64,000 nucleotides of DNA, from assembly GCA_021817605.1 (NCBI GenBank), contig JAKAUN010000004.1, positions 68,427-132,426 on the forward strand, in the 5' to 3' direction. The translations under genes were made by a program, and so were the position numbers. Below the pieces are notes generated by a model that saw nothing but the letters and a program-made list of their open reading frames with translations, ran no database searches and had not been told where the DNA came from. How positions within the stretch are numbered: position 1 is the stretch's first letter; every line of letters begins with the position of its first letter. Source of the stretch: Thermoplasmata archaeon (GTDB taxonomy: Archaea > Thermoplasmatota > Thermoplasmata > Lutacidiplasmatales > UBA184). Positions 2,535 through 64,000 of the stretch are shown here, one piece after another.

Positions 2535-2571
2535 GAACTCGCAACACGCTGGATACGGTCGGGGAGTGGTT

Positions 2572-3950: not shown

Positions 3951-4008
3951 GCCGCAACCGCGCCGTCGGACACGGGGGCTTGATGGGCCGCAGCGCTCCG
4001 GCCGAAAC

Positions 4009-4806: not shown

Positions 4807-4835
4807 GGTCGACCCGAGGAGGGGACGCCTCGGGG

Positions 4836-4845
4836 CGTATAGCGA
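4836..4845 (-). promoter_or_regulatory. TATA-like box for leaderless PAC2 gene
   Basis: gcgtatagcg sits in the 4807-4917 divergent intergenic region between the PAC2 and FEN-1 starts. Confidence 0.3.
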
Positions 4846-4926
4846 AGCCGTACGGGCGCCTCTGACGGGAGCTTCCCTCTCCTCTGCCGCGCCAAACCCA
4901 AGTACTCTTCTCCGCTCGTGCGCCTC

Positions 4927-7433: not shown

Positions 7434-7434
7434 C

Positions 7435-24700: not shown

Positions 24701-24783
24701 GCTCGGTTCACCCTTCGTTCGACCCGGGGCGACGCAGCAGCGCGGCGGTCTCCTGCCGCGGCCCCTTGCGGAGGCTCCGGCGG

Positions 24784-24790
24784 ATAAATA
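24784..24790 (+). promoter_or_regulatory. TATA box (ATAAATA) ~40 nt upstream of GT2 gene ATG 24829
   Basis: Conspicuous AT heptamer in the divergent intergenic region 24701-24828. Confidence 0.35.
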
Positions 24791-24828
24791 CCTCCCCCGC
24801 TCCTCGGCGAGGGGGGTGCTTTGGCGCG

Positions 24829-32634: not shown

Positions 32635-34509
32635 GTGGCGTTCGGCGGGGTGGCCATGGTCCTCGGCGTGCTCCTTGGGATCGGCGAGGCCTCCTCGCCC
32701 GGGAGCTACACCAACGTCCAGTTCACCTGGCTCAAGCTCGCGCCCTCGCCCGGCCCGTTCCCCAGCGGCTTCGAGCTCGTCATGGGCACGCTGGTCGACC
32801 CGATCTCCGCGCTCGTCCTCGTGGTCGTCACGGTCGTCGGCTTCCTCGTCCTCCTCTACTCGATCGGCTACATGCACCACGACCGCGGGCTTCCTCGCTA
32901 CTACGCCGAGCTCTCGCTGTTCCTGGCGGCGATGAGCGGCCTCGTGATCTCCAACAACCTGCTGGAGTTCTTCCTGTTCTGGGAGCTGGTCGGGCTCTGT
33001 TCCTACCTGCTCATCGGATTCTACTACGAGAAGCCCTCGGCAGCGAGCGCCGCGAAGGAGGCGTTCCTCGTCACGCGGGTCGGCGACGTGATGTTCCTCC
33101 TCGGGATCTTCCTCTTCTTCTTCGTCTACGCGACCAAGGGCCCCGCGGGCACCGGCGGCTGGGCGGCGAGCGGCTTTGTCTTCGTCCACGGCGCCGCACC
33201 GTTCGTGCCGGTCGGCACCGGCAACGCGACGCTCCTCACCATCGCCGGGATCATGATCCTCGGCGGAGCGGCAGGGAAGAGCGCGCAGTTCCCGCTCCAC
33301 GTCTGGCTGCCGGACGCGATGGAAGGCCCCACCACCGTCTCCGCGCTCATCCACGCCGCGACGATGGTCGCGGCGGGGGTCTACCTGCTCGCGGTGACGA
33401 GCCTGTTCCTCGGGTTCACCGCGCTCGACCAGACGGTCATCGTCGCGATCGGCGGGTTCACCGCCTTCTTCGCCGCGACGATGGCGCTCGTCCACCCGGA
33501 CATCAAGCGCGTGATCGCCTACTCGACGGTGAGCCAGCTCGGCTACATGGTCCTCGCCGTCGGCGCGGGGTTCACGATGGTCGGGCTCTTCCACCTGTTC
33601 ACTCACGCGTTCTTCAAGGCCCTCCTCTTCCTCGCCGCCGGCTCGGTCATCCACGCGGTCGGGACCCAGGACCTGTTCAAGATGGGCGGGCTCCGAAAGA
33701 AGATGCGCCTCACCTCCGCCGCCTTCGCCATCGGCGGCCTCGCTCTCGCCGGGATCCCGCCGTTCGCCGGCTTCTGGAGCAAGGACGACATCCTGAGCTC
33801 GGTCTATTCGACCCTCCCGTCGCATCCAGCGTACTGGCCGGCCTTCCTCCTCGCCTTCGCCGCGGTGTTCCTCACGGCCTACTACATCTTCCGCGCCTGG
33901 TTCCTCGCCTTCTCCGGAGATAAGCCGCGGGACCCGGCGCTCGAGCATGCCCACGAGGGGCCGTGGGTCATGGCCGTCCCGCTCGTCGTGCTGAGCGCCG
34001 TGGCGATCGGCGGGGGGCTGCTCGTCTACCTCCCCGGCTTTGCCGGGCTCCTCCTCCACGGGGGCGGGACTCCCGGGATCCCCCCCACGCTCTCCCCGAC
34101 CGATCTTCTCCTCTCGACGGCGAGCGTCCTTCTCGCCGTCGGAGGGATCCTTCTCGCCTGGAGGCTCTGGGGGAACGGACGGGTCGCTCCCCTCCCGAGC
34201 TCGTCGGCCGTCCGCTCGGTACGCCAGGTGCTGCTGGCCCGCTACGGGATGAAGGCAGCCTACGACTGGATCGGGACGAAAGGGGTCTACACCCTCGCCC
34301 GCGGAGCGGACTTCTTCGACCGGTTCGTCATCGACGGGACCGTCCACGGCTTCGAGCGGACCTTCGGCGGCCTCTCCGACCGCCTTCGGAGGATCCAGAC
34401 CGGCGTGGTCTCCGACTACGCCTCCTACGTGGTCGCCGGGCTCATCGCGGTCTTCGCGCTGATGCTCCTCCTCGCCCCGTACCTCCTGAGCCGCCTCGGA
34501 GGGGCGTAG
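32635..34509 (+). CDS. nuoL: NADH-quinone oxidoreductase subunit L (first canonical start; conserved TM1 extends upstream to ~32506 in frame)
   Basis: Clear NuoL sequence. It lies in the same frame as nuoK, and after the nuoK TAG the frame reads ...LFRWAFLVPLLYVLSFVIVGLAGRRLSRLEWGG..., which aligns with E. coli NuoL residues 4-28. There is no ATG/GTG/TTG until GTG 32635. CTG codons occur at 32506 and 32527. Confidence 0.85.
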   Translation: MAFGGVAMVLGVLLGIGEASSPGSYTNVQFTWLKLAPSPGPFPSGFELVMGTLVDPISALVLVVVTVVGFLVLLYSIGYMHHDRGLPRYYAELSLFLAAMSGLVISNNLLEFFLFWELVGLCSYLLIGFYYEKPSAASAAKEAFLVTRVGDVMFLLGIFLFFFVYATKGPAGTGGWAASGFVFVHGAAPFVPVGTGNATLLTIAGIMILGGAAGKSAQFPLHVWLPDAMEGPTTVSALIHAATMVAAGVYLLAVTSLFLGFTALDQTVIVAIGGFTAFFAATMALVHPDIKRVIAYSTVSQLGYMVLAVGAGFTMVGLFHLFTHAFFKALLFLAAGSVIHAVGTQDLFKMGGLRKKMRLTSAAFAIGGLALAGIPPFAGFWSKDDILSSVYSTLPSHPAYWPAFLLAFAAVFLTAYYIFRAWFLAFSGDKPRDPALEHAHEGPWVMAVPLVVLSAVAIGGGLLVYLPGFAGLLLHGGGTPGIPPTLSPTDLLLSTASVLLAVGGILLAWRLWGNGRVAPLPSSSAVRSVRQVLLARYGMKAAYDWIGTKGVYTLARGADFFDRFVIDGTVHGFERTFGGLSDRLRRIQTGVVSDYASYVVAGLIAVFALMLLLAPYLLSRLGGA

Positions 34510-34515
34510 GCGCCG

Positions 34516-35991
34516 ATGCTGCCGCTGCTCTCGCTCGTCCTCGCCACCCTCTTCGTCGGGACGCTTGCCACCTTCCTCGCGGGCTCGCGCGCCCGATGGG
34601 TCGCTCTCGTGGTCTCGTCCGCCTTCCTTGCGGAGGTCGCGCTGCTCTTCGCCGACTTCACCGGCTGGCCCGGCTACTCGGCGCAGCTCGTCCCCGGCTT
34701 CTCCGAGGGGGAGAGCTACGCCTGGCTCCACCTCTCCTGGCTGCAGATCAACTACACGGTCGGGGTCGACGGCATCTCGCTGGTGCTCATCCTGCTCACG
34801 GCGATCCTCCAGATCGCGACCGTGCTCTACTCCTGGAAGGAGGCGAAGAAGCCGAACGCCTACTTCGGCCTCCTCCTGCTCACCTGTCTCGGTTCCTTTG
34901 GGGTCTTCGTCGCGCTGGACATCCTGCTGTTCTTCCTGTTCTGGGAGGCGGTCCTCGTCCCGATGTTCTTCCTCATCGGCTTCTGGGGAGGGCCACGACG
35001 CCGCTACGCCGCGCTCAAGTTCTTCATCTACACCCACGTCGCGTCGATCGTCATGCTCTTCGGCCTGCTGGCCGTCGTCTTCTACTCCGGCTCGACCAGC
35101 CTCGACTTCTCGGCGGTCTACCTCGCCGCCCGCGGTCTCGCCCCGGTGGTCCAGACGCTCCTGTTCCTCGCGCTGTTCTTCGGCTTCGCCGTGAAGTTCC
35201 CTGTCGTCCCGTTCCACACCTGGCTGCCGGACGCGCATGTCGAGGCGCCGACGGGAGGCTCCGTGCTCCTCGCCGGCCTATTGCTGAAGCTCGGCGGCTA
35301 CGGGCTCATCCGCTGGGGTGTCGAGCTGTTGCCGATCGGCTTCGCGCACGACCGCTCGATCCTCTTCGCGATCGCCTTCCTCACCATCGTCTGGGGCTCG
35401 GTCGTCTCGCTCTCCCAGCGCGACCTCAAGCGGCTGGTCGCCTACTCGTCCATCAACCACATGGGCATCGTCCTCCTGGCGATCGCCCTCAACAGCTCGC
35501 TCGGGCTGCTCGCCGCGGTCCTCCTCATGTTCGCCCACGGGATCGTGAGCGGACTGCTCTTCATGACCGCCGGCTCGGTCCACCACACCTTCGGCACGCG
35601 CGACCTGCCCGCGGTCGGAGGGATCACGCCGAGGACCCCGGCGCTCTCGACGATGGTGATGGTGGGCTCCCTCGCCTCGCTCGGCCTGCCGGCGCTCATC
35701 GGCTTCCCCGCCGAGTTCACGGCGCTCCTGGCGACGTGGGACGGTCTCCGCTACCTCGTGTTCATCCCGCTCGTCATCCTGGTCGTGACCGCCGCCTTCT
35801 ACCTGTGGATGATGCAGCGGCTCCTTTTCGGGCCCGTGCGGGGCGTGCCGGACGGGGCCCACGACATCCCCTGGTACGAGGGCGCCGGGATGGGCATTTT
35901 GGTCATCCTCACCGTCCTGTTCGGCATCCTGCCGAGCCTTCTGACGAACGTGATCGTGAGCTCGCCGATCCGCGGGTTCCCGGGGCCGTAA
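34516..35991 (+). CDS. nuoM: NADH-quinone oxidoreductase subunit M
   Basis: NuoM/ND4-family antiporter-like subunit. Confidence 0.9.
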   Translation: MLPLLSLVLATLFVGTLATFLAGSRARWVALVVSSAFLAEVALLFADFTGWPGYSAQLVPGFSEGESYAWLHLSWLQINYTVGVDGISLVLILLTAILQIATVLYSWKEAKKPNAYFGLLLLTCLGSFGVFVALDILLFFLFWEAVLVPMFFLIGFWGGPRRRYAALKFFIYTHVASIVMLFGLLAVVFYSGSTSLDFSAVYLAARGLAPVVQTLLFLALFFGFAVKFPVVPFHTWLPDAHVEAPTGGSVLLAGLLLKLGGYGLIRWGVELLPIGFAHDRSILFAIAFLTIVWGSVVSLSQRDLKRLVAYSSINHMGIVLLAIALNSSLGLLAAVLLMFAHGIVSGLLFMTAGSVHHTFGTRDLPAVGGITPRTPALSTMVMVGSLASLGLPALIGFPAEFTALLATWDGLRYLVFIPLVILVVTAAFYLWMMQRLLFGPVRGVPDGAHDIPWYEGAGMGILVILTVLFGILPSLLTNVIVSSPIRGFPGP

Positions 35992-35992
35992 G

Positions 35993-37588
35993 ATGAGCTC
36001 GCTGTTCGACCTTGCGGGCACCTTCGCCCCCGAGCTCGTCCTCCTCGCCGGGGCCCTGCTGGTCTTCCTCCTGGACGTCCTCAAGCTCCGGCGGCTCGAG
36101 CTCGTCGGCTCGGTCTCGGTCGGGGCGAGCCTCCTCGCCCTCGCCCTCGTCGTCGCCGACCTCGGCTTTGCCCCGTTCGCCTCGCTGAGGACCCTCTCCG
36201 CCGCCCAGGTGAACCCGTCGCTCTCGGCGCTCGCCACGCCGCTCTGGACGTTCACCTCGCTCGGCCTCGTCTTCCAGGGGATGTTCCTGCTCGCCACCCT
36301 GCTCGTCTCGGTCGCGTCCCTCTCGCGGGGGTCGAAGGAGACCGGCGGGCCGATCTTCTTCGGACTCCTCCTCCTCGCGACGCTCGGGATGCTTCTGGTC
36401 GCGATCTCCTCCGACCTCATCTTCCTCCTCCTCGCGATCGAGCTCAGCTCCATCGCGACCTACGTGCTGGTCGGCTACACGCGGAGGGGGCTCCGCCCGC
36501 TCGAGGCGGCGATGAAGTTCTACATCATCGGGGCGGTGAGCTCCGCCCTCTCGTTCTTCGGCGCCTCGCTCCTCTTCGGCGCCTACGGGACGACCAACCT
36601 CCTCGCGATCCGCGAGGTCGCCGGGACGGTCGGCACCCCGATCCTCGCTCTCCTCGGATACGCCTTTTTGCTTTCCGGCCTCGCGTTCAAAGCGACGCTC
36701 GTGCCTTTCCACGCCTGGGCGGTCGACGTCTACGACGGCGCCCCGTCGGACGTGAGCGCCTTCCTCGCCGGGGGGACGAAGAAGGTCGGCATCTTCGCCG
36801 TTCTCCTGGTCTTCCTCGGACCGATCCTCTTCGCGGGGGCGGGAGGCAGCTCCAACCCGTTCCAGGGAGGCCCGTTCACGCTCGGGCCGATCCTCCAGGT
36901 GACGCTCGGCACGCTCGCCGTCGTCACGATGACCGTGGGCAACGTGCTCGCCCTTCTCCAGAAGGAGATGAAGCGGCTGCTCGCCTACTCGTCGATCAGC
37001 CAAGCCGGCTACATGCTTCTCGGCGTGACGATAGGGACCGCCCCGGCGATCGCCGGAGCGACCTTCCAGGTGCTCGCGCACGTCCTGATGAAGGGAGGCG
37101 CCTTCCTCGTCGTTGCCGGGGTGGCGGGGCTCGGCATCGGCCCGCTCGTCGACGACTGGCGGGGGCTCGGGAGCCGAAGGCCGCTGCTCTCGGTCGCCTT
37201 CGCCCTGTTGCTTCTCTCCCTCGCGGGAGTCCCGCTCACGATCGGCTTCGTCTCGAAGTTCGTCCTGTTCAGCGCCGCCGTCCAGGCGCAGGGCTTCTTC
37301 GTCTGGCTCGCCGTCGCGGGGCTCCTCAACAGCGCTCTGTCGGTCTTCTACTACGCCCGCGTCCTCAAGGTCATCTACTTCGAGGCGCCGCCGGCTCCTC
37401 TCCCTACGGGAGGCGCGGTGGTCGGAGGCGCGGGACCCGAGCCGCTGCGCGCCGGAGGGCTCGGGATCGGCCGCGCGGTCGCCATCGGAGTCGCGACGGC
37501 GCTCGTGGTCGCCCTCGGGGTCGACCCGCAGCCGTTGCTCGGCCCGATCCAGGCGGCGGCCTCGCACTTCGTCTTCTTCTGGAGGTGA
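35993..37588 (+). CDS. nuoN: NADH-quinone oxidoreductase subunit N
   Basis: NuoN/ND2-family antiporter-like subunit. Confidence 0.9.
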   Translation: MSSLFDLAGTFAPELVLLAGALLVFLLDVLKLRRLELVGSVSVGASLLALALVVADLGFAPFASLRTLSAAQVNPSLSALATPLWTFTSLGLVFQGMFLLATLLVSVASLSRGSKETGGPIFFGLLLLATLGMLLVAISSDLIFLLLAIELSSIATYVLVGYTRRGLRPLEAAMKFYIIGAVSSALSFFGASLLFGAYGTTNLLAIREVAGTVGTPILALLGYAFLLSGLAFKATLVPFHAWAVDVYDGAPSDVSAFLAGGTKKVGIFAVLLVFLGPILFAGAGGSSNPFQGGPFTLGPILQVTLGTLAVVTMTVGNVLALLQKEMKRLLAYSSISQAGYMLLGVTIGTAPAIAGATFQVLAHVLMKGGAFLVVAGVAGLGIGPLVDDWRGLGSRRPLLSVAFALLLLSLAGVPLTIGFVSKFVLFSAAVQAQGFFVWLAVAGLLNSALSVFYYARVLKVIYFEAPPAPLPTGGAVVGGAGPEPLRAGGLGIGRAVAIGVATALVVALGVDPQPLLGPIQAAASHFVFFWR

Positions 37589-41160: not shown

Positions 41161-43185
41161 GTGCCTGCGTCCCTCACCATCGCCCAGCAGCTCGCGGCCA
41201 AACAGCGCGAGATCTCCGTCGCCGAGTTCTTCGAGCGCAACCGTCAGATCCTCGGCTTCGACAACCTCCAGCGGGCGCTGCTCACGACGGTCAAGGAGGC
41301 CGCCGACAACGTCCTGGACGCTTGCGAAGAGTCCGGCATCCTCCCCGAGCTCACGGTCGAGATCGCCAAGGAGGGAGAGGACCGCTACCGCGTCTCGGTC
41401 TCCGACAACGGACCGGGGATCTTGCGCAAGGAGATCCCGAACGTCTTCGCCCGCCTCCTCTACGGCTCGAGGTTCCACTCCCACCGGCAGGCCCGAGGCC
41501 AGCAGGGGATCGGCATCTCGGCGGCGGTCCTCTACTCCAACCTCACGACCAACCGGCCGGCCCGGATCACCTCCAAGGTCGAGGAGGAGGAGGTCGCCCA
41601 CGTCCTCGATCTCTTCCTCGACACCCAGAAGAACCAGCCCCGGGTCGTCCGGGACGAGGTCGAGATCTGGGACCGGCCGCACGGAACGCGCATCGAGCTC
41701 AGCCTCAAGGCCCGCTACGTGCGAGCTCGCCAATCCCCCCTCGAGTACCTGCGCGGGACCGCGATCGTCAACCCCCACGCGCGCATCGTCCTGGTCGAGC
41801 CGGACGGCACGCGGCTCACTTTCGAGAGGGCGAGCTCCGAGCCGCCTCCCCCCGCCCGCGAGACGCTCCCGCATCCCTACGGCCTCGAGCTCGGCGAGCT
41901 CGCCCACCTCCTCAAGGCGAGCCGTCGGTCGACCCTCACCGAGTTCCTCACCAAGGACCTCCAGGGGGTGAGCCTCCGCGCGGCGAAGGAGGCGCTTCTC
42001 GGCGCCCGGCTGAGCGGCTCCGCCAAGCCGGCGAGCGTCGAGGGGGAGCCTCTCGAGAAGCTCCTCACGTCGCTCCAGTCGGTGACCCTGATCGCGCCGA
42101 GCGCTGACGGCCTCTCGCCGATCGGCGCGATGCTCATCAAGCGCGGCCTGCGCAACGTCCTCGGGGAGCTGAGGCCGGAGTTCTTCGCCCCGCCGGTGAG
42201 CCGTCCCCCCCGCGTCCGGGGAGGCTTTCCGTTCATGGTCGAGATCGGCCTCGTCTACGGCGGCGGGCTTCCCGCCGACCAGCCGATGCAGATCCTTCGG
42301 TTCGCCAACCGCGTCCCCCTCCTCTTCCAGCAGGGGGCCTGCGCCATCACCAACGCGATCGCCTCGATGGACTGGCGCCGCTACGGCCTCGACCAGAAGG
42401 GCGGCAGCGGGGTCCCCGTCGGGCCGGCGCTCGTGCTGGTCCATGTCGCCTCGACCAAGGTCCCCTTCACGAGCGAGGCGAAGGAGGCCGTCGCCGAGGA
42501 CCCCGAGCTCGACCGCGAGATCACCCTCGCCCTCCAGGCCTCCGCGCGCCACCTGAGGACCCACCTAACGAGGATGAGCCGACGCGACTTCGCGAGCGAG
42601 AAGTTCGCCATCATCCAGCGGATCCTCCCCCGGCTCGCCGAGAAGACGAGCCACCTGCTCGGAAAGCCGGTCCCCGATCTGACCCCGGTGATCACCCGCA
42701 TCATGGACGTGGTCAACGTGGAGACCTCCCTCGTCAAGGAGCCCGGGGCGCTTCGCCTGCCGGTCGAGGTCACGAACTACACGCCGCGGCCGCGCGTGCT
42801 CGAGCTCTTCCTCGAGATCGCCCCGGAGATGTTCGGGGCCGCCGCCTTCGACCCCGCGCCGGACGGGACCGACCCCGCCCTCGGAAGGGCCTGGTGGACG
42901 CTCCCGAAGCTCGCGCCGAACGGCCGGACGCGGCTTACGGTCACGCTGCCGAAGGAGGCCGACATAGAGGCCAACGACCTCGACTGGTTCGTCGCCGGCG
43001 TGGACGAGGCGCGCCTCCTGGGCGCCGACCCGCTTCCCGGCGACTGGGAGGTGCGCCTTCCGCGCACGATCGTCGAGGCTGCCGAGGCGGCTGCCGCGGA
43101 CGCGGCGGCGGGCTCGGCGAAAGAGGAAGGGGAGGTCGATTACGATGCCGCCGAAGCGAGCGAAGGCGTCCGCGACGAAGACTGA
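41161..43185 (+). CDS. top6B: DNA topoisomerase VI subunit B
   Basis: GHKL ATPase Bergerat fold (EAADNVLDA...SDNGPGI...[10 protein letters not shown]) and a transducer domain. GTG start. Confidence 0.9.
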
Positions 43186-52446: not shown

Positions 52447-53739
52447 GTGAGCGACCCTCCTGCGCCGGCGACACCGTCCCGCTTCGTCCGGGACCTCGGA
52501 CGCGTGCGCCTCGACCGCGAGCACGGGGCCCGGGCCCTTGCCCTCGAGACCCTTCGCGTCCTCGGCCGAGAGGCCGCGTCGTGGCGGCGGCTTCCGCCGT
52601 CAAAAGCGCGCGTTGCGGCGGCGAGGATGGTGAGGCAACTGCGGCAGGTCCAGCCGGCGATGGGCCCGTTGCGGGCCTGGTCACGGGAGCTTGCCCGTGA
52701 GGTAGGGAAGACCAGGACGGGCGGACGCCTGGCCCCTACGGCCCTCCGTTGGATCCGGAAGAAGCGGACCCGCCTCCTCGCGGAGCCCCGGCGACTCGGC
52801 GAGGTCGTGCGGCACGAGCTTCCGCCCGCCCTGACGTTGCTCACCTTCAGCCGAAGCGAGAGCGTGCTCGACGCCCTCCGCCGGCTCCCCGGTCCCCGTG
52901 CCCCTCGACGTGTCCTTGCCGCCGAGAGCCTTCCCGGCGGGGAAGGCCGCAAGGTGGTCCGCGAGCTCGCCCGGGCCCCGATCCCCGCGCGGCTGGTGCG
53001 GGACCGTGACCTTCCCACGGCGCTCAGGGAGGCCGACCTGGTGATGGTCGGCGCGGACGCCGTCGAGGCCGACGGGAGCCTGGTACACAAGGTCGGCACG
53101 CGTCGCCTCGCCGAGCTCGCCCGCGACGCCGGCGTGCCGCTGGTCGTCGTCGCGGGCAGGACGAAGTGGGTCGGCCGCGAGGGAGGAAGGCCGCGGCTCC
53201 CGCGCCTGTTCGACCGGACACCACCCTCGCTCGTCTCCGCGTACTGGACCGACGACGGGGTCTTGCCGGGCGGTCGACGCCGCGGCGGTCCGAGGGGCCG
53301 AGCTCAAAGCCCCGGACGCTCTTCTCGTGGGGAGAGGGACCGATCGATGACCGAGAAGGGCGTGGCTCGGGTGGGAGCCGAAGCGTTCGACGGCTCCAGC
53401 CTCAAGTTCCCGGGGATCGTGGTCGTCGGGTATCTTGCCGATTGGTGCCCGTTCTGCGCTCGATTCGCCCCCGAGCTCGAGGCGCTCCGACGAGAGGGGC
53501 TCACCGTGCTGCGCGCGGACCTCACCGACGAGGAGAGCCCCCTCTGGGAGCGGTTCTCCATCGAGATCGTGCCGAGCGTCCTCCTCTTCCGAGACGGAAA
53601 GGAGGCGTTCCGCGCCGACGGGATCGCGGGTCGTGGCCTTTCCGAAGGCGACCTCCGCGCGATCCGGACCGAGGCGAAGCGTCTCGGGCAGAACCCAGCG
53701 TCGGGCGGCTCCGGCAACCCTCCCCGCTCCTCGCGCTGA
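52447..53739 (+). CDS. aIF-2B/ribose-1,5-bisphosphate-isomerase family protein reading through in frame into a thioredoxin domain (possible fusion or frameshift; thioredoxin alone would be 53347..53739)
   Basis: Residues 1 to ~295 resemble the eIF-2B alpha/beta/delta family (ADLVMVGADAVEADGSLVHKVGTRRLAELARDAGVPLVVVAGRTKW). Residues from the internal Met at 53347 form a thioredoxin (GYLADWCPFCARFAPELE). In the +1 frame a TGA overlaps that ATG (ATGA at 53347-53350). Confidence 0.65.
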   Translation: MSDPPAPATPSRFVRDLGRVRLDREHGARALALETLRVLGREAASWRRLPPSKARVAAARMVRQLRQVQPAMGPLRAWSRELAREVGKTRTGGRLAPTALRWIRKKRTRLLAEPRRLGEVVRHELPPALTLLTFSRSESVLDALRRLPGPRAPRRVLAAESLPGGEGRKVVRELARAPIPARLVRDRDLPTALREADLVMVGADAVEADGSLVHKVGTRRLAELARDAGVPLVVVAGRTKWVGREGGRPRLPRLFDRTPPSLVSAYWTDDGVLPGGRRRGGPRGRAQSPGRSSRGERDRSMTEKGVARVGAEAFDGSSLKFPGIVVVGYLADWCPFCARFAPELEALRREGLTVLRADLTDEESPLWERFSIEIVPSVLLFRDGKEAFRADGIAGRGLSEGDLRAIRTEAKRLGQNPASGGSGNPPRSSR

Positions 53740-56337: not shown

Positions 56338-56373
56338 CGTGGCCCGTTCGGGCCTTCGGGTCCCTTCGCGGCG

Positions 56374-57357
56374 CTAGATCGCGCGGCGAAGCGGGCGGTA
56401 GAACGCCGAGCGCACCTCGGCGGCTCCGCCGCCCGAGGGGAAGCGGACCTTCACCGCCGCCGACCTCCCGAACATGGTGAACTCGAGCGAGTACCAGACG
56501 GCCGTCCAGCTCCCCCCCGCGTCCTGGAACGCCTCGCCGAAGTGGTAGGTCGACTCGATCATGCGGTTCGCCTTCCGGGCGAGCGGGTAGGCCCAGTCGA
56601 GCGCTTCGGCCTCGTTGGACGGCGCGCCGGCGTGCTCGGAGGACTCCAGCGAGCCTTCGACGCGGAACGGCCCGGCGACCACCCCGCGGCCGAGCGTGTA
56701 GCGGGCCCAGCTGGTCCTCACGCGCTCGTTCTCGACCTTCTCGGAGAGGACCAGCCAGGTGAGCGGGCTCGAGGTAGGGACGACGCGGTCGAACTCGCCG
56801 AGGGAACGGAGCTTGCGTCCCATCTTGAGGCGGCCGAAGAGGCGCAGGAAGAAGTAGGCCCCGAAGAACGCCATCAGTACCCAGACGGTGACGAGGTAGT
56901 ACTCGAACGGGACGTGGTTACGCTCGACGCCGAGAAGGAGGTAGAACGACGCGACCGAGACCCCGAGGGTGAGGAAGTTGATCGCCCGGTCGGCGTCCAG
57001 CTCGAGCCGTCGGTCGGAGAACGGAAGGAGCGGCGGGACGGAGAAGTGGGTGAAGCCGTCCATGGCGACATGCGCGAGGCCCCCGGCCTCGAGGACGAGG
57101 AAGTAGACGAGCGGCGAACCCGGGGCGAGCAGCGGGGCGACCAGGCAGCCGACCCCGGCGACCACGCTCACGCCGAAGATCGAGTGGGTGATCCCGTGGT
57201 GGCGCAGTATCGGGAAGCGGCGCGCGAGCGGGAAGAAGATGGCGTCGCCGTCCGGGAGCCCGCCGGCGAGGGCTCCGGCAGCGAGGTACTGCGGATGGAA
57301 GCCGACCAGCCCGTAGGCGAGGAGATAGGCGACCAAGACGTGCGTGAAGAGGTCCAC
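56374..57357 (-). CDS. membrane-bound metal-dependent hydrolase (DUF457/YdjM-like)
   Basis: The N-terminus MDLFTHVLVAYLL with conserved His/Asp in TM helices (GITHSIFG, AHVAMDGFTH). Confidence 0.7.
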   Translation of the reverse strand: MDLFTHVLVAYLLAYGLVGFHPQYLAAGALAGGLPDGDAIFFPLARRFPILRHHGITHSIFGVSVVAGVGCLVAPLLAPGSPLVYFLVLEAGGLAHVAMDGFTHFSVPPLLPFSDRRLELDADRAINFLTLGVSVASFYLLLGVERNHVPFEYYLVTVWVLMAFFGAYFFLRLFGRLKMGRKLRSLGEFDRVVPTSSPLTWLVLSEKVENERVRTSWARYTLGRGVVAGPFRVEGSLESSEHAGAPSNEAEALDWAYPLARKANRMIESTYHFGEAFQDAGGSWTAVWYSLEFTMFGRSAAVKVRFPSGGGAAEVRSAFYRPLRRAI

Positions 57358-57376
57358 GGCCCTCCACCGCGGTGGG

Positions 57377-57643
57377 CTACAGGAGCCCTTCTTCCATCAC
57401 TTCGACCGACTCGACCTCGGGAAGTCGAGCGAGGGCGTTCTCGGTCGACTCGAGGACGCCGCCGGTGTCGTCCATGACGACCGAGACGAGCAGCGACTTG
57501 AGGCCGAAGGCGATGTCCTTCACCTGGGTGCCGCGGACGGTGACGCCGGTCGGGACCGAGGAGCGCACCTGGCGCTCGATCGCCGCGACATCCGTCTCCA
57601 CGCCCTTCGGCATCAGCCGAAAGAGCACCGCGACCCGACCCAT
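57377..57643 (-). CDS. ef1b: translation elongation factor 1-beta (aEF-1beta)
   Basis: The 88-aa sequence MGRVAVLFRLMPKGVETDVAAIERQV...IAFGLKSLLVSVVMDD...VESVEV matches archaeal EF-1beta. The upstream part of the ORF-track entry is artefact. Confidence 0.8.
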   Translation of the reverse strand: MGRVAVLFRLMPKGVETDVAAIERQVRSSVPTGVTVRGTQVKDIAFGLKSLLVSVVMDDTGGVLESTENALARLPEVESVEVMEEGLL

Positions 57644-57657
57644 CGACCCGACCCGTC

Positions 57658-57828
57658 CTACGGCCCGTCGAAGCCGCACTTCGGACAGTGGTAGAGCACG
57701 CTCTGGTCCCGGCAACGCTGGCAGCGCCCGATGCTCGCCTCGCCGCAGGACGGGCAGAGGAACTGCGTCGCTCCCGGGCCGGGGATCGTCCGACCGCAGG
57801 AGGTGCACTTGAGCTCGGCCCTTGGCAT
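57658..57828 (-). CDS. Zn-ribbon protein (COG2888-like, four CxxC; typical upstream partner of ef1b in archaea), 56 aa
   Basis: Hand-translated as [56 protein letters not shown]. Not in the ORF track (below 60 aa). Ends 14 nt before ef1b. Confidence 0.65.
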
Positions 57829-57867
57829 GCTATTCTCCGTTCCGCGACGGCCCGAGGGGAAAGCGCC

Positions 57868-58686
57868 TCAGCGCCGCCCCGAGCCGCGACGGCGCGCGGC
57901 CACTCGGGTGGCGAATATAAAGAGTGCTCCGAAGAACGCGACCGTCCCGGCGGCATACCAGAGGGCGTTGTTGGGCGGAGCGCCGGCCACGTAGAACGTC
58001 GCGCTGACCGTCGAGCGGCCCCCGCTGAACGACACGAGGCCGTGCTCGTCGGCGACCGAGAGCTCGAAGGTGTGGTGGCCGGCGGCGAGGCTGCCGGACG
58101 GGTAGCGGAACGTGACCGTGTAGCTTTGCAGGGCGTTGAGCCCGGGGACCGAGACGTTGCCGATCAGACGGCCGTCCAGCGTCACGAGGACCTTGAACGG
58201 CATGACGGCGTTCGGGCCGGCGTTGAGCTTCGCCGAGACGATGTACGGCGTGAGGACGCTCACCGAGTCGGTGACGTTCGCGTAGCTCTTCTGCGTGCCG
58301 AAGAGCGAAGTGAGGTGGAGCTCGAGGGTCACCGTCTCGGCGAACTTGCCGACCGTGAGCGTGACCGTCGCGGCGCTCCCGTTCTTGAACGTCCCGTTCG
58401 ACGGGTTCACGGAGACCCCCGTGAGGTCGACCGCCGAGAGGGTCACGCTCCAGGTGATCTTGCCGATGAACTTGCCGAACTGCACCGCCACCCCGCCGCT
58501 CCCGTTCAGCGTGTAGGTGCCGTTGGTGTTGAGGGCGAGCTCGCTCGGACCCCGGATCTGGCCGGTGAGCGGCGGGGACGAGGAAGTCGTCGAGGGGACG
58601 GCTTGGGCGTGGGCGGGGGGAGCCAGCGAGAGCACACCGGTGAGCAAAAGCGCGACCAGGCCGAGCGCGAGGAGCGTCGGCCTCAT
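57868..58686 (-). CDS. secreted, C-terminally membrane-anchored beta-sandwich glycoprotein candidate (Sec signal peptide, multiple N-glycosylation sequons)
   Basis: Start ATG 58686 (MRPTLLALGLVALLLTGVLSLAPPAHA/QA) overlaps the aglB stop (ATGA at 58683-58686). Sequons NGT, NGS, NGT, NGS, NVT, NVS. The C-terminus LWYAAGTVAFFGALFIFATRVAARRRGSGRR is a TM helix plus a basic tail. Confidence 0.6.
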   Translation of the reverse strand: MRPTLLALGLVALLLTGVLSLAPPAHAQAVPSTTSSSPPLTGQIRGPSELALNTNGTYTLNGSGGVAVQFGKFIGKITWSVTLSAVDLTGVSVNPSNGTFKNGSAATVTLTVGKFAETVTLELHLTSLFGTQKSYANVTDSVSVLTPYIVSAKLNAGPNAVMPFKVLVTLDGRLIGNVSVPGLNALQSYTVTFRYPSGSLAAGHHTFELSVADEHGLVSFSGGRSTVSATFYVAGAPPNNALWYAAGTVAFFGALFIFATRVAARRRGSGRR

Positions 58687-61600
58687 CTCCGCACCCACCT
58701 GCGGGTCTTCCACCAGCGGCGGACCGAGAGCCCCACCGCGAGCGCTATCGCGGGGAGGAACGAGACCACCGGCACGAACCAGTCCGGGAGGGTGGGTGGG
58801 CCGCCGGCGATCGACGGGCCGGTGACCGTCACCGGACCGCTCGTCGCGAGGGAGGCGGTCGGCACCTTGAGCGTGAGGACCGAGGCGATCGACCCGCTCG
58901 CGTTCTCCACCGTCGCCTCGACCGTCACCGACCCCGGCGGGAGGGCGACCGACCGGTTGGCGCTGAGGTTGACCGTCACCGTGTCGTTCGCCCCCGCGGC
59001 CAGGCTGACGAGTCCGCTCGACGGCAGGGGCCGGCCCGCGACCAGGATGCTGGTCCTCCAGCCAAGCGTGGCGAGCCGCGCGGTGTTGACCACGGAGAGG
59101 TTCGCCGTCTCGAGGACGTTACCGGTGTTGATGAGGGAGAAGGCGACGATCGCGGCCCGGGGCCCGACGTGGGCGAGCTGGGAGGCGAAGTGTGCCGCCC
59201 GTATCCCGAAGTAGCTGAACACCTGGACCGTCGGTGCCGGACTCACCGACCCCGCGACGGTCCCGTTCGCAAGCTCGAAGGTGATCGCCACCGGCGCATG
59301 CGCCACGAACGTCCCCTTCGGGACCTTGAGGACGACCTCCCCGGCGTAGGCGGGGCCGCCCGGGGCCAGGGTCACGTTCGAGAAGGAGAAGTTGAAGCCC
59401 CAGGAGGACGGCGAGCCGACAGGGTGGACGGTCACGGGGACGTTGCCGGAGTCGCTGAGCGAGAACGAGAAGCTCGCGTAGCCGCCGACCGGGACGCTCA
59501 CCGAGCTGCTGCCAACCAGAGCGGCGCTCACCGTCGAGGAGGCAGGCACGGCGAGGAGGAGCGGAACGATGGCGTTGCCGTTCAGGAGGGCGACGGAGGC
59601 TCTGGCGCTCGCCGTCCCGGCGACACCGTTGAGGCTTCCCGGGGCCACCGCGGAAACGGTGTAGGTGCCGAGCGGAACGGGCAGGCTCACCGACGTGCCC
59701 ACGGGCACCCCGACAAAGAGTGTCCGGTTGCCGAAGGCGTCCTGGACCGTCACGTTCGCGAGGCCCTGGGTCTGCGTCCCGCCGCTCGCGACCGAGACCG
59801 GTAGGGTGAGCGACCAGGTCGGGCCGAGGGCGATCGAGGGGACGGGGGCGTTCGGAAGCGCGAGCAGCCGGCCGAAACCGGCGAGGTTCGCCGTCGAGGT
59901 CGCTTCGGCGTAGACGTAGTAGGCCCCCGGGGCGAGCTCGGCCGAGAAGGAGCCCAGCGTCGCCGGCACGACGGTGACGTTGTCGCTCGGGTATGGCCCG
60001 ACCAGCCGCACGACCCCGGAGAGGAGCGTGGGAAGGCCGGCGCTGGTGAGCCTTCCGTGGACGGCCAGCGGCGGGACCGAGCCGACCATCGTGATGCGGC
60101 AGGAGCTTGCGTTCGCGGTGAACGTGCAGCTAGCCCCCGGTACCGGGCTCCAGCGCTCGGTGAAGCTCCCGTTCGGCCCGCTCGTCACGGAGCTAAAGTT
60201 GGCCTGGAACGCGTAGCTCCCCGGAGGAAGGAAACCGGAGAACGTGCCGCTGCCGACGGTGACCACCGTGGTAACGCCGCCCGAGCCACGGAGCGTCGCG
60301 CGTCCGCCCAGCGTGAGGGCCGTGCCCGCCGTGTCGACCAGGGTACCGCGGACCTTGACCCCCGTAGCGGAGAGGACGAGCTTCGGAGTGATCGCGCCGT
60401 TGGCGGCGACCGTCACCCGGGTGAGGTTGACGTAGTGGACCGAACCGACGGTGGTCGACACCGTCGCGGTGTAGTTGGCCGGGGTCGCCCGGAAGCTCGT
60501 GGTGAAGGCGGTCCCGTTGACCGAGACGTTGAGCAGGCTCGAGGTCAGGTTCACGGTCGTGCCGGCGAGAGTCGCCCCGGTCGGCAGGACGAGCCGCCCG
60601 GAGGCGTTGATCTCGGGGATGAGGGTGAGCGTGAGGTTCGAATACGTCGCCCCAAGCGGGATCGTCGTCGAGAGCACGCTCGACGGGAGGTAGACGGTCG
60701 TCCCGTTTCCGATGACGGCACTCGCGCCCACACCGTAGACCCCCGGGGGCAGCGAGAGCGAGAAGAGCGGTCCCCCGACCAGGGTGAGGTTGACTGCCGT
60801 CGGCGACTTGCCGGTGAAGTTGACCGTGACGTTGGTCCCCTTGGGAAGGCCGAGGACCTTGAGCGTGACCGCGACCGGGTTGATCTTGAGGTCGTAGAGG
60901 GAGAGCTGGGCGAGGGCGGTGGGCGACCAGCCGCAGGTCGTGTTCTGCGCGAAGCCGAAGGTCGTGATGTTCACGCAGTAGCCGGTGGACGAGCCGGGCG
61001 GCACGGCGGGCAGAACCAGCCCGGTCGCTCCGTTGACGCCGCTCACCATGCTCTCGAACGGCCCGCCGGGGCCCGCGGAGACGACGACCTCGGCACCCTC
61101 GGTCCCCGCGAACGTCGCGTGGGGGCCGGGAGCGCCGACGGCAAAGTGCGTCGTGACCGCGTTCTGGAGCTGGAGATGGACGGAGGTGGACGGCTCTGCC
61201 ACGGCGACGCTCGCCAGCGCCACGAGCGAGGTGCTCCCCGTGGTCGAGGTCCCGTGGACCGAGGCGAAGCTGTAGGAACCCGCCGGCAGCCAGATCTGCG
61301 CGGTCTCGTTGGCCGCCGCCCAGCTCAGCAGCTGGAAGCCGTTGCTCGCGTAGACGATGACCGCCGTCCGGCTCGCGTTGCTCGGCCCCAGCTCTCCTCC
61401 GACGGTGACGGTGACGGGCACGGCGGGAGACAGGGGGATCGGGAACGGCCCGATCGACGCGCCGGGAAAGACCGTGAGGAGGGTGTAGCCGGTGACCCTT
61501 TCGCCGTTGACGAGGCCCAGCGCGTAGACCCCGTAGGTGCCCGGGTCGAGAGTGAGGCTGGCGAAGCCGGTGGGACCGGTCGTGGCGAGCGCCCCGGTGG

Positions 61601-64000
61601 CGGTCGCCGCCTCGAGCGTGGCGACACCGCTCAAACTACCGTTGACAAGCCCCGAGATCGGGACGAAACGGACGGGAACGGAGGCCACGCCGACGCCGTT
61701 GAAGCTGAGCTGGACGGAGACCGAGCCGCGAGAGGCGAGCTGGAGGTTCACCGAGACGAGCCCGCCGCTTGCGTTCAGGGTGACCGGCACGGTGGCACTC
61801 CGCAGCGGGCTCCCCGGGAACGAGGCGTAGACGTGGTAGGCCCCTGGCGCGAGCCGACGCACGGAGAACCCTCCGGTGGAGCCGACCGTGGTGGTGGCGA
61901 CGACGCCGCTCGCGTTCGAGATCGTGACGGTCGCTCCGCTCGCCGGCGCGCCGTTCGAGTCGGTGACCTTGCCGGCGATGAGCCCGGGGTCGAGCCCCGC
62001 CGAGATGTTGGCGACGCCCCCGGGGGTGGCGTTGAGCGACGGCTGGGAGTAGCTGTTGCCGGCGTAGTTCACCGTCACGTTATAGACCTGGGGCGGGACG
62101 TCCGTGAACTGGTAGCTGCCGCTCGGGTCGGTGATCCCCGTGAGGACGGGAGAGCCGCCGACCCCGGTCAGGACGACCTTGGCCCCGTTCAGGACCGGGT
62201 CGACATGCGGGATGAAGGTCGAGTTGTTCCCGACGTTGAAGTAGACGAGGGCGTTCACCTGGGCCGAGCGCATCTGGAAGGTCCGGACCATCGGCGCGGC
62301 GTTGAGCGAGAAGCCGACCGAGGCCGGCACCGTGAGGTTGACCGTGGAGAGTACGTTCGCGTCCCCTTGGCTCCTCTTGTCGAAGGGTCCCGAGGTGAAG
62401 TTGAGCGTGTCGTTGCCCGGCGGGAGGACGAGCGAGAAGGTGCCGTCCGCCGTCGTGACCGCGGTCATGTGCGGGATCCCCGAGCCGTCGTAGACGGTCA
62501 CGCGGATCCCCGAGGCCGGCGTGCCGGACGGGGTCCTGACGGTGCCGAGGAGCGGCTCGCCGGCATAGTAGGCCAGGATCGCCTCGCCGCCCTGGAAGAA
62601 CGACGTCGCGCTCGTGTCCGCGGAGCCGTTGGTCTTGTTCGCTATCTGCTCGGCTGTAGGCAGGTTGGTGGGCACGTAGCAGCTCGACGAGGGAGACGGG
62701 TTCGACTGGTAGGGGCACACGTAGGCGGTCCGGTAGACGACCTCGAAGTGCTGGAGCATCCAGCCGGGCATGAGAGGGTCGCTCTGCGCGGACCCCGTGA
62801 GCCCGGGGATCCCGCTGGACTGGCCCACGTCGGTGCCGTTGTAGCCGATGTAGATCCGATAGAGCATCGAGCGGTAGAACGGCGAGGAATAGTTGATGTT
62901 GTAGCGGACCGCCGTCACGCCGGCGGGCAACTGGCCGAGGGGGTAGACGTTGTTGTCCGAGCCGAGAATGCTCACGTTGAAGAACGTTGTCGGGATCCCC
63001 GAGGAGCTGATCACCCGTCCGGTGAGGTCGGCGGGCGCGTAGAAGATCCCGGTGTTCGAGCCGGAGAAGGGGAACAGGCGGCTGTCGACCATCGCGTAGC
63101 GGATCGACCAGCCGGTAAAGGCCTGGATGTCGTCGTAGGCCTTGGAGACCTGCGAGAGCGAGAGCGTCCCGGCGAGGTAGTGGGAGACGGCCAGGTACAT
63201 CGCGTTGTCGAGACTGAGGGTCGAGGGGTTGACAGGCAGGTAGACCGCGGGATGGTGGACGACCGTCTGGTAGTCGGAGGCCTCGTTCGTGAGCAGGCGG
63301 TTGAGGATGGTGACGTTCACCCCGTCCGCGGCGAGGATCGTGTCGAGAGCGGAAGGGAGGCTGGTCGAGCGCGTCTCTTGCAGCTCCCCCTGGAGGAGGG
63401 TCGTCGACAGGATCGAGATGGCGAGCGACTCGTTCTGGGAGAGCAGGAACTGCCCGGCGGGGTCGATCCCGTTCTGGAAGTTATCGGCGACGCTCGGATG
63501 CTGGCCCTGGTCGATCGCCTGGAAGCCGTAGTCCCACCAGCTGATGAAAGCCGGACGTTTGGGCTCGGGTACGTTGGTGTCCTGAGAGGCGAGCCAGTTG
63601 TAGGCGGCGCTGTCGTACTGGTTCGGCGTGTCGAGCGCCGAGCCCGCCGCCCCGAGGTAGTTCGAGCCCGGGGCCGAGGCGTTGAGCTTGAGCCAGGTGG
63701 GGATCGTGTTGTTGATCTCCGTGGCCAACTGGCCCTTGTTGTTGGCGGGAATCCCCGCGTCGATCGCCACCCAGATGTTCGGGAGAACGAGACCGACGAC
63801 CAGGACGAGGACGAGGACGTGGCGCGCCTTGAACGACTTGCGGAAGGCGGCGAAACGGCTCCCGCGGTCGGCGAGCGAAGCGACGTTCCGGCGGAGCTTG
63901 GGGTAGCTGCCGACGTCGAGCGCCCGGCGGATCGCCTCTCCCGAGAGGAGAGCAAACGCCGGGGTCCCGACCAGGAAGAACTTGGTCGCCGAGATCGGAA
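58683..64000 (-). CDS. aglB: oligosaccharyltransferase AglB/STT3 (5' end beyond window), giant form with ~1300-aa C-terminal extension of beta-sandwich (carboxypeptidase-regulatory-like) repeats and C-terminal TM anchor
   Basis: WWDYGFQAI...SVADNFQNGIDPAGQFLLSQNE matches the AglB catalytic motif (WWDYG) and downstream region. The ORF-track start (GTG 63770) lies inside the gene. The same frame is open to the window edge, reading ...KFFLVGTPAFALLSGEAIRRALDVGSYPKLRRN...KARHVLVLVLVVGLVLPNIWVAIDAGIP (the last TM helix of the STT3 membrane domain). The C-terminal ~1300 aa contain repeated GT...DG.F... beta-sandwich modules and many sequons. The tail DWFVPVVSFLPAIALAVGLSVRRWWKTRRWVRR is a TM anchor. 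Confidence 0.85.
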   Translation of the reverse strand, partial: PISATKFFLVGTPAFALLSGEAIRRALDVGSYPKLRRNVASLADRGSRFAAFRKSFKARHVLVLVLVVGLVLPNIWVAIDAGIPANNKGQLATEINNTIPTWLKLNASAPGSNYLGAAGSALDTPNQYDSAAYNWLASQDTNVPEPKRPAFISWWDYGFQAIDQGQHPSVADNFQNGIDPAGQFLLSQNESLAISILSTTLLQGELQETRSTSLPSALDTILAADGVNVTILNRLLTNEASDYQTVVHHPAVYLPVNPSTLSLDNAMYLAVSHYLAGTLSLSQVSKAYDDIQAFTGWSIRYAMVDSRLFPFSGSNTGIFYAPADLTGRVISSSGIPTTFFNVSILGSDNNVYPLGQLPAGVTAVRYNINYSSPFYRSMLYRIYIGYNGTDVGQSSGIPGLTGSAQSDPLMPGWMLQHFEVVYRTAYVCPYQSNPSPSSSCYVPTNLPTAEQIANKTNGSADTSATSFFQGGEAILAYYAGEPLLGTVRTPSGTPASGIRVTVYDGSGIPHMTAVTTADGTFSLVLPPGNDTLNFTSGPFDKRSQGDANVLSTVNLTVPASVGFSLNAAPMVRTFQMRSAQVNALVYFNVGNNSTFIPHVDPVLNGAKVVLTGVGGSPVLTGITDPSGSYQFTDVPPQVYNVTVNYAGNSYSQPSLNATPGGVANISAGLDPGLIAGKVTDSNGAPASGATVTISNASGVVATTTVGSTGGFSVRRLAPGAYHVYASFPGSPLRSATVPVTLNASGGLVSVNLQLASRGSVSVQLSFNGVGVASVPVRFVPISGLVNGSLSGVATLEAATATGALATTGPTGFASLTLDPGTYGVYALGLVNGERVTGYTLLTVFPGASIGPFPIPLSPAVPVTVTVGGELGPSNASRTAVIVYASNGFQLLSWAAANETAQIWLPAGSYSFASVHGTSTTGSTSLVALASVAVAEPSTSVHLQLQNAVTTHFAVGAPGPHATFAGTEGAEVVVSAGPGGPFESMVSGVNGATGLVLPAVPPGSSTGYCVNITTFGFAQNTTCGWSPTALAQLSLYDLKINPVAVTLKVLGLPKGTNVTVNFTGKSPTAVNLTLVGGPLFSLSLPPGVYGVGASAVIGNGTTVYLPSSVLSTTIPLGATYSNLTLTLIPEINASGRLVLPTGATLAGTTVNLTSSLLNVSVNGTAFTTSFRATPANYTATVSTTVGSVHYVNLTRVTVAANGAITPKLVLSATGVKVRGTLVDTAGTALTLGGRATLRGSGGVTTVVTVGSGTFSGFLPPGSYAFQANFSSVTSGPNGSFTERWSPVPGASCTFTANASSCRITMVGSVPPLAVHGRLTSAGLPTLLSGVVRLVGPYPSDNVTVVPATLGSFSAELAPGAYYVYAEATSTANLAGFGRLLALPNAPVPSIALGPTWSLTLPVSVASGGTQTQGLANVTVQDAFGNRTLFVGVPVGTSVSLPVPLGTYTVSAVAPGSLNGVAGTASARASVALLNGNAIVPLLLAVPASSTVSAALVGSSSVSVPVGGYASFSFSLSDSGNVPVTVHPVGSPSSWGFNFSFSNVTLAPGGPAYAGEVVLKVPKGTFVAHAPVAITFELANGTVAGSVSPAPTVQVFSYFGIRAAHFASQLAHVGPRAAIVAFSLINTGNVLETANLSVVNTARLATLGWRTSILVAGRPLPSSGLVSLAAGANDTVTVNLSANRSVALPPGSVTVEATVENASGSIASVLTLKVPTASLATSGPVTVTGPSIAGGPPTLPDWFVPVVSFLPAIALAVGLSVRRWWKTRRWVRR

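Follow-up and report, generated by a model that had tools for sequence, protein, structure and literature searches.

A giant AglB-like oligosaccharyltransferase with a modular extracellular extension, a second membrane anchor and a coupled partner gene in Thermoplasmata archaea

The window analysed here is a stretch of 64,000 nucleotides from contig JAKAUN010000004.1 of a Thermoplasmata archaeon (assembly GCA_021817605.1). Its far end encodes, on the minus strand, most of a giant homologue of the archaeal oligosaccharyltransferase (OST) AglB, followed by an overlapping gene for a small membrane protein, here called the partner. A minus-strand frame without stop codon runs from a TGA at 58683–58685 up to 63998 and comprises 1,771 codons, in line with the more than 1770 aa, open to the window edge, of the original prediction made for this DNA. 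The encoded residues share 100% identity, over 100% of their length, with P0001, a protein of 2,195 aa from the Thermoplasmata metagenome-assembled genome (MAG) GCA_027317885.1 (contig DAHVQH010000004.1; locus L001). The same protein is also called in a second assembly record (ENA ERZ27233565). The gene extends approximately 1,272 nt past the window end, and residues 1–424 were taken from L001/P0001; the original prediction had rightly placed the N-terminus beyond the window but had estimated it at 300–400 aa instead of 424. The listing of open reading frames (ORFs) begins at the first in-frame GTG (58683..63770, 1,695 aa) though the frame leaves the window, and 1,695 aa is not the length of the gene. 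GC content at third codon positions is 0.93 in the aglB frame, as in other genes of this window of ~70% GC. A frameshift or gene-fusion artefact, including the stop or frameshift between catalytic domain and repeats that the original prediction had named as a possible flaw, is excluded by ortholog collinearity: 114 homologues align almost gap-free, and the more divergent giant AglBs described below align end to end.

By fold and motifs, the giant protein is very probably an STT3/AglB oligosaccharyltransferase, an assessment that covers identity and architecture jointly. Pfam STT3 (PF02516) matched the N-terminal part, taken from locus L001, with 36.4 bits against a cut-off of 24.5, and an AglB_core-like Pfam match in the visible part was sub-threshold. 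Thirteen transmembrane (TM) helices precede residue 505 according to hydropathy and an AlphaFold2 (AF2) model. A profile of residues 1–560 matched AglB-L of Archaeoglobus fulgidus (AfAglB-L) with an E value of 6e-13 over residues 6–463, which is nearly the whole membrane domain, and human STT3A with an E value of 6e-4. A profile was required for these matches; a single-sequence phmmer search of residues 1–560 against PDB gave none. The AF2 model of residues 1–980 has a predicted local distance difference test score (pLDDT) of 65, with mostly 80–95 in the membrane domain. The best 16 Foldseek matches of this model were all AglB or STT3 chains (AfAglB, human STT3A/B, and yeast Stt3), with a target-normalised TM-score of ~0.5 for the top matches; DPY19 and PglB ranked next.

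Position counts and statements of invariance given here and below refer to an alignment of 114 close sequences, and conservation is the frequency of the commonest residue per column. The first DXD motif, in external loop 1 (EL1), is represented by G-S-D52, which aligns with G-N-D47, a metal ligand, of AfAglB. D52 shows no exception among the 114 close sequences or the 11 divergent giants. The motifs that define STT3/AglB proteins also include TIXE/SVSE with a catalytic Glu in external loop 5 (EL5) (PMC8342417). The TIXE-type motif of the giant AglB is T367-V-A-E370, which is invariant, and 'VAEAQ' was aligned to 'VSEHQ' of STT3A, in a low-scoring stretch of the profile alignment. The divergent giants possess WWDYG in 10 of 11 cases and WWDFG in the remaining one. 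The region of residues 506–900 is the best-conserved soluble part of the protein (conservation ~0.75–0.88) and contains nine sequons and the invariant pair C852/C864. The DK or MI motif of these enzymes, DXXKXXX[M/I] or MXXIXXX[I/V/W], lies on a kinked helix forming the Ser/Thr pocket (PMC3703281). The candidate for it is D688-N-A-M691-Y-L-A-V695 on a predicted helix of residues 687–702, with K or R at 691 in sister clades; its assignment would need a confident structure. The NCBIfam model TIGR04154 (archaeosortase A system-associated STT3) scored 53.4 bits, below its cut-off of 450. Of the claims made originally, the AglB/STT3 identity is borne out by the Pfam STT3 match above threshold, the AfAglB-L profile match, and these motifs.

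Beyond the catalytic part follows an extension of ~1,260 residues, which is predicted to consist of ~11 CarboxypepD_reg-like modules and two other beta-sandwich modules, that is ~13 in all. CarboxypepD_reg (PF13620) matched with 91.7 bits against a cut-off of 32.3 in three stretches, corresponding to the first three modules. The 'LPPGxY' motif recurs nine times in the modules of residues 901–1905, with the variant LPPGND in module 1, and the count of ~11 plus two modules is based on this recurrence and on the strand pattern. The last two modules (residues 1906–2140) matched no Pfam family, and hhalign detected a weak relation to each other only. Strands of module 1 are visible in the AF2 model of residues 1–980. 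A second AF2 model, of residues 996–2195, is all-beta, ending in a 20-residue linker and a TM helix, with a mean pLDDT of 84 and a predicted template modelling score (pTM) of 0.50 over 1,200 residues. The composition of residues 901–2160 is high in V, G, A, T, and S, with few charged residues. Conservation is ~0.8 in the catalytic part versus ~0.55 in the extension, where the invariant residues are mainly G, P, and Y; the Cys pairs 1432/1446 and 1715/1724 are invariant as well. In hhalign comparisons of single modules with the extension, probabilities >90% were obtained only among the neighbours 1–3 and 9–10. The modules therefore appear to be ancient and individually distinct, and not the result of recent repeat amplification. 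A free-standing extension was not found in a profile search of 1.84 billion representative proteins, in which the collinear matches were giant AglBs or contig-truncated fragments. Six short matches (P0182, P0198, P0295, P0179, P0304, and P0196) were considered as free-standing ancestors and rejected; all of them begin mid-domain with V or G.

The extension is densely populated with sequons. Residues 901–2160 contain 40 of them, compared to 13.5 ± 3.2 expected from 1,000 shuffles, while the 505-residue TM domain has zero. Across the family, the number of sequons in the extension averages 40 (range 27–59). Their positions are less stable: among 331 columns with a sequon in any member, only 12 keep it in ≥80% of members. 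A number that is kept while positions shift is the pattern that selection for a dense glycan coat would leave, and the three-fold enrichment would imply that N-glycosylation operates in these organisms.

The chain ends in a fourteenth TM helix (TM14), in which P2173 and L2177 are invariant, and a basic tail; conservation of the last 45 residues is 0.72. The divergent clades carry other basic tails. Since the tails vary but stay basic, the shared feature is therefore likely to be a stop-transfer anchor with the C-terminus inside. NCBIfam sorting-signal models (PGF-, PEF-, and IPTL-CTERM-type) gave no match at E values up to 10 with the C-terminal 60 aa of AglB or the C-terminal 50 aa of the partner. 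An IPTL-CTERM signal, suggested by the resemblance of 'PTLPDW' to the motif IPTLxxWG, was rejected; besides the lack of an NCBIfam match, 'PTLPDW' is not conserved in sister clades. Thus, three structural elements of the original prediction were recovered: an extracellular extension of CarboxypepD_reg-like beta-sandwich modules (then put at ~1300 aa; supported by three Pfam stretches and the all-beta AF2 model), its high density of sequons, and a second, C-terminal membrane anchor with a basic tail.

The partner gene encodes a protein with a signal peptide, an ectodomain of ~200 aa (weak CARDB match, several sequons), one TM helix, and the tail ARRRGSGRR. Among the loci reaching far enough, 68 have a homologue immediately after the giant aglB, and 61 of 69 loci retain the ATGA overlap. 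The TM helix and the tail are the most conserved parts of the partner (0.80 and 0.78, versus 0.54–0.64 in the ectodomain). Database searches with the partner yielded 57 matches of ~270–290 aa, apart from one 182-aa entry, and the single taxon-named match belongs to a Thermoplasmata MAG. The possibility that the partner is a paralogue of the last two AglB modules was rejected (hhalign probability 2.3%); it has no detectable homology to the extension. Downstream of the partner, the co-directional string continues with genes of translation. In the divergent lineage of P0285 (locus L083), the giant AglB is likewise followed, with a 4-nt overlap, by a 262-aa CARDB-like TM protein, aS21, and EF-1beta. 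The aglB gene and its partner therefore sit in an old, conserved, translation-related gene string and not in a glycosylation island. The location of an OST gene inside a translation-related, operon-like string was unexpected. The coupled partner gene, as well as a degenerate second DXD motif located outside the window, are features beyond the original prediction. The coordinates of all these features are listed in Table 1.

Table 1. Features of the giant aglB locus. Locations refer to the window unless locus L001 or L083 is named; residue numbers are those of P0001.
Feature	Location	Strand	Basis
Visible part of giant aglB, residues 425–2195 of 2,195 plus stop codon	58683..63998	-	Open frame; identity to P0001
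Complete giant aglB gene	L001 10001–16588		P0001 locus
EL2 (external loop 2) motif region, residues 154–170 of P0001	L001 10460–10510 (outside window)		
STT3 membrane-domain end: part of TM12, basic cytoplasmic loop, TM13 (residues 425–505)	63756..63998	-	Hydropathy peak 485–503; AF2 helices; profile alignment to AfAglB-L residues 4–460
Extracellular catalytic core region, residues 506–900	62571..63755	-	Conservation; PDB matches to AglB-S1/S2 C-terminal domains; AglB_core-like match
WWDYG, residues 578–582	63525..63539	-	Translation; invariant in 114 homologues
Residue 691 (M)	63198–63200	-	
Predicted ~11 tandem CarboxypepD_reg/prealbumin-like beta-sandwich modules, residues 901–1905	59556..62570	-	Pfam; motif scan; AF2; hhalign
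Two predicted C-terminal beta-sandwich modules of different type, residues 1906–2140, motifs 'GNVPVTVHPVGSPS.W.FNFSF' and 'NTGN..E'	58851..59555	-	AF2
Low-confidence linker, residues 2141–2160	58791..58850	-	pLDDT <50, model residues 1146–1165
Fourteenth TM helix LPDWFVPVVSFLPAIALAVGLSV (then R), residues 2161–2184	58719..58790	-	Hydropathy 2.25; AF2 helix at model residues 1170–1194
Basic tail RWWKTRRWVRR, predicted cytoplasmic, residues 2185–2195	58686..58718	-	R2185, W2186, R2190, and W2192 invariant in close family
Partner gene, 272 aa; ATG overlaps aglB TGA (ATGA, 4 nt)	57868..58686	-	Translation; homologues at same place
Co-directional string aglB, partner, aS21 zinc-finger ribosomal protein, EF-1beta, YdjM	~56370–58686; L001 16585–18897	- (window)	
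Matching string with S17e in place of YdjM	L083 12501–13966		

Several further genes were recorded in the neighbourhood. At locus L083, a 1,642-aa Peptidase_S8/Big_7 protein (974–5902, minus strand) is divergently encoded just upstream of the giant AglB. On the plus strand of the window, the ORF at 52447–53739 (called gene ~52627–53739) encodes an IF-2B-family domain and, C-terminal to it, a thioredoxin domain, an uncommon fusion. Three consecutive Proton_antipo_M genes, for complex I/Mrp-type antiporter-like subunits, are located at 32635–37588 (plus strand), and the B subunit of topoisomerase VI is encoded at 41161–43185 (plus strand). The antiporter-like and topoisomerase genes represent an ordinary housekeeping context, and no glycosylation genes were found among the window ORFs checked. 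The ORFs at 5664–7961 and 23306–24913 (both minus strand) were rejected as genes; they have no Pfam match, are rich in R, G, A, and S, and probably are non-coding shadow frames of a high-GC genome.

Giant AglBs are widespread. The best 120 database clusters listed share 46–66% identity with the query, and all but six of them are 2,188–2,211 aa long; 114 of the 120 are near-full-length (2,150–2,230 aa). A scan of one genome per GTDB species with two peptide patterns gave at least 582 confirmed stretches, which corresponds to a few hundred genomes or more. The 80 loci that were kept all originate from Thermoplasmata-type MAGs of soil, peat, and sediment, including Candidatus Lutacidiplasma silvani. 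The GC content of the window fits the value of ~69% reported for Lutacidiplasmatales genomes (PMC9287336). The search of 1.84 billion representatives with the extension profile also retrieved divergent full-length giants of 2,150–2,217 aa, with WWD[YF]G at residues 572–593 and, in all cases, a C-terminal TM helix and a basic tail. These are 26–40% identical to P0001 and to one another, align over ~2,100–2,250 columns, and are labelled as Thermoplasmata archaeon, Methanomassiliicoccales archaeon, or Euryarchaeota archaeon. The giant architecture is thus the typical AglB form of Thermoplasmata archaea. The original prediction had called it unusual and had noted that database evidence for it as the normal AglB of the lineage would speak against this; it is indeed unusual when compared to characterised AglBs (591–868 aa), but within Thermoplasmata it is the norm. 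Most members are named in NCBI as 'carboxypeptidase regulatory-like domain-containing protein'. Full-text literature searches combining AglB or OST with Thermoplasmata, carboxypeptidase regulatory-like, or transthyretin-like revealed no description of this architecture, and neither the Lutacidiplasmatales paper with its supplements nor a 2025 survey of Thermoplasmatota mentions AglB, STT3, or S-layers. The enzyme family is a known one; the conserved extension, the second anchor, and the partner are undescribed in the literature searched.

For the catalytic part of the Thermoplasmata protein, the AglBs of A. fulgidus match best in both sequence and fold. Those characterised have 591–868 aa (PMC3703281), and the references used here were AglB-L with 868 aa (PDB 3WAJ, 3WAK, 5GMY, and 7E9S) and AglB-S1 and AglB-S2 with 591 and 593 aa (PDB 3VGP and 3VU0). 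Common features include the 13-TM STT3 fold, the EL1 Asp (D52 = D47), the TIXE-type Glu in EL5, and WWDYG followed by an 'NFQ.G' segment. At 2.5 to 3.7 times their length, the Thermoplasmata protein adds ~13 beta-sandwich modules, the fourteenth TM helix, and the basic tail. It also has the coupled partner gene and N-Y-L in external loop 2 (EL2), where A. fulgidus AglB has D161-H-H163.

The eukaryotic OST, composed of STT3A or STT3B and single-pass subunits, shares the STT3 catalytic fold. Its extra lumenal beta-sandwich domains (such as ribophorin I and OST48) are held by single TM helices beside STT3. The conserved TM anchors and the single-pass partner suggest that a layout of this kind may exist in Thermoplasmata, where the majority of the additional domains belong to the catalytic chain itself, whereas those of the eukaryotic OST are separate subunits. 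Homology at the sequence level to ribophorins, OST48, or further OST subunits was not detected.

Another protein resembling the extension is NOMO, which has a single C-terminal TM anchor and a short tail. NOMO contains 12 prealbumin-like domains (PMC11186639). The best solved-structure match of the family profile was NOMO2 of the BOS complex (PDB 9C7V; E 6e-20), and Pfam NOMO1-like_2nd and NOMO_5th matches occur in many members of the giant-AglB family. The four matching stretches of NOMO2 all fall on modules 2–3 of the query. The architecture of the extension thus appears NOMO-like, with a resemblance at the domain level and matches that are not collinear. NOMO occurs as a separate protein that carries a signal peptide and acts as a BOS subunit of the multipass translocon of the endoplasmic reticulum, with Nicalin and TMEM147 as its partners, while the AglB extension is fused to an enzyme. 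NOMO was absent from the top 50 Foldseek matches of the extension model. The Foldseek search of the extension against PDB returned generic multi-beta-sandwich proteins (alpha-2-macroglobulins, complement, and pilins), with TM-scores ≤0.13 among the matches listed. A relationship to alpha-2-macroglobulins or complement was rejected: the TM-scores were 0.06–0.13, and the six Cys positions noted in P0001 are the three conserved pairs, none of which, by eye, is part of a CGEQ-type thioester motif. Additionally, hundreds of large prokaryotic surface proteins with CarboxypepD_reg repeats (1,200–7,800 aa) matched the extension profile at E <1e-30. They match modules 2–3 only, 10 to 57 times each, and represent arrays of variable length, in contrast to the AglB extension with its fixed number of non-interchangeable modules.

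Overall, the best explanation, which we favour with moderate confidence, is that the protein acts as a housekeeping OST to which a glycosylated envelope scaffold, tethered to the membrane twice, is attached. The OST fused to its own glycosylated scaffold, one of the two possibilities offered in the original prediction, thus stays a reasonable reading. Taken separately, the structural-scaffold role of the extension is a tentative assignment. N-glycosylation in these organisms probably depends on the giant AglB as the working OST, with its activity predicted from sequence. The chain would leave the catalytic core, pass through ~13 modules outside the cell, and re-enter the membrane via TM14, leaving the basic tail in the cytoplasm. 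We infer that the extension forms an ectodomain loop of fixed geometry that is heavily N-glycosylated and has both of its ends tethered. A defined three-dimensional arrangement, as opposed to a flexible stalk, is suggested because even deeply divergent members have the modules in the same number and order and because of the pTM of 0.50. Specific helix packing in the membrane is suggested because the TM helices of both C-terminal anchors are conserved, a stoichiometric partner because of the translational coupling, and a glycan coat because the sequons are numerous but movable. The extension is probably glycosylated by AglB itself or by neighbouring copies. TM14 and the TM helix of the partner probably dock on the STT3 bundle or on each other, which would result in a small built-in complex.

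Several observations weigh against this explanation. The second DXD motif, in EL2, is degenerate: G165-Y-A-N168-Y-L170 aligns to G-F-N-D161-H-H163 of AfAglB and to G-S-Y-D-N-E of STT3A. In AfAglB, D161 and H163 are the EL2 metal ligands (PMC8342417). D160 as a relocated substitute for D168 was rejected as a rule; 14 of the 114 sequences are acidic at neither 160 nor 168, and the same applies to many matches of the search with P0317. Catalytic competence of the giant AglB is not fully certain because the N-Y-L version of the second DXD lacks a consistent acidic substitute. Also, the pLDDT around WWDYG is only 35–45 in the AF2 model of residues 1–980. The constant length and the conserved TM helices suit a substrate-handling complex equally well as a scaffold. 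Finally, no S-layer family was matched in Pfam or NCBIfam, and the S-layer-like nature originally ascribed to the ectodomain, for which a PGF-/PEF-CTERM-type signal is lacking as well, received no direct support. With regard to EL2, position 168 is occupied by N in 98 and by D in 16 of the 114 sequences and by nothing else, and position 170 is L or Q. Some divergent clades of giant AglBs keep D-H-D in EL2, and these also differ at residue 691, with K or R in place of the M of this clade. We read the N-Y-L active site as apparently remodelled but still constrained.

Among the alternatives, the one that survives best is a built-in OST holo-complex, which we regard as possible but unlikely. The module array, TM14, and the partner would act like OST accessory subunits or NOMO by holding or presenting nascent secreted polypeptides or by docking the enzyme at the Sec translocon, which would make the glycosylation of sequons efficient; the extension would then serve catalysis and not be a surface coat. 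The coupling of the genes hints at a partner in a 1:1 ratio, conservation within both C-terminal anchors is highest in the TM helices, as expected for helix packing, and the constancy of module number and order over deep divergence suits such a complex. NOMO, the best solved-structure profile match, is similarly multi-domain, but the match is non-collinear and confined to modules 2–3 and NOMO was not retrieved among the top Foldseek matches. Furthermore, no conserved polar patch or groove was identified in the extension, where invariant residues are mostly G, P, Y, and C, and archaeal OSTs are described as single-subunit enzymes (PMC8342417). A multi-component OST in which the ectodomain arches over the catalytic site, TM14 and the partner TM helix are packed on the STT3 bundle, and EL2 carries Asn for Asp, is an improbable arrangement in our view. 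If true, it would contradict the single-subunit view of archaeal OSTs and give prokaryotes an equivalent of the accessory subunits of eukaryotic OST or of translocon-associated NOMO, possibly with shared domain ancestry with the latter.

It is quite improbable that the protein is a pseudo-enzyme, in which an inactive STT3 domain serves as a 13-helix anchor for a surface protein and another AglB, encoded elsewhere, performs glycosylation. The second DXD, which is N-Y-L and not D-x-D/E/H, would fit this idea, as would M at residue 691 where the D-H-D clades have K or R, and the NCBI name of most members, which refers to the carboxypeptidase regulatory-like domain only. However, no variation is seen at D52, E370, WWDYG, or many loop residues, conservation is highest in the catalytic part, and the restriction of position 168 to N or D suggests a ligand position under constraint. 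D-H-D is retained in sister clades of giants with the same architecture, and the housekeeping gene neighbourhood is conserved alike. A scan limited to ±10 kb at 84 loci and to the 64-kb window revealed no second STT3 core. A true S-layer protein, with the ectodomain as a two-dimensional envelope lattice and the OST domain as its membrane foot, is very improbable: the ectodomain is large, sequon-rich, membrane-anchored, and of beta-sandwich type, and S-layers are present in some Thermoplasmatales relatives (PMC3750248), but neither an S-layer family nor an archaeosortase-type C-terminal signal was matched, the cell would have to produce, in lattice quantities, an enzyme of which catalytic quantities suffice, and anchoring at both ends is atypical for lattice-forming proteins.

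Archaeal and bacterial OSTs have been treated as single-subunit enzymes of ~600–1,000 residues, and structural work has been based on A. fulgidus AglB-L (PMC3703281, PMC8342417). The giant AglBs would add a whole archaeal class in which AglB is more than twice the size of AglB-L, including abundant lineages of acidic soils and peat and genomes labelled as Methanomassiliicoccales. Should the additional parts and the catalytic domain assemble into a complex, they would offer a simpler system for asking how accessory domains aid an OST, and whether such assemblies preceded or paralleled the eukaryotic OST. The natural D-to-N replacement at a metal-ligand position, together with the D-H-D sister clades, provides a ready comparison for studies of the catalytic mechanism. 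Were the ectodomain chiefly an element of the envelope with a coat of glycans, as in the favoured explanation, it would bear on how the cell surface is built in the largely wall-less Thermoplasmata.

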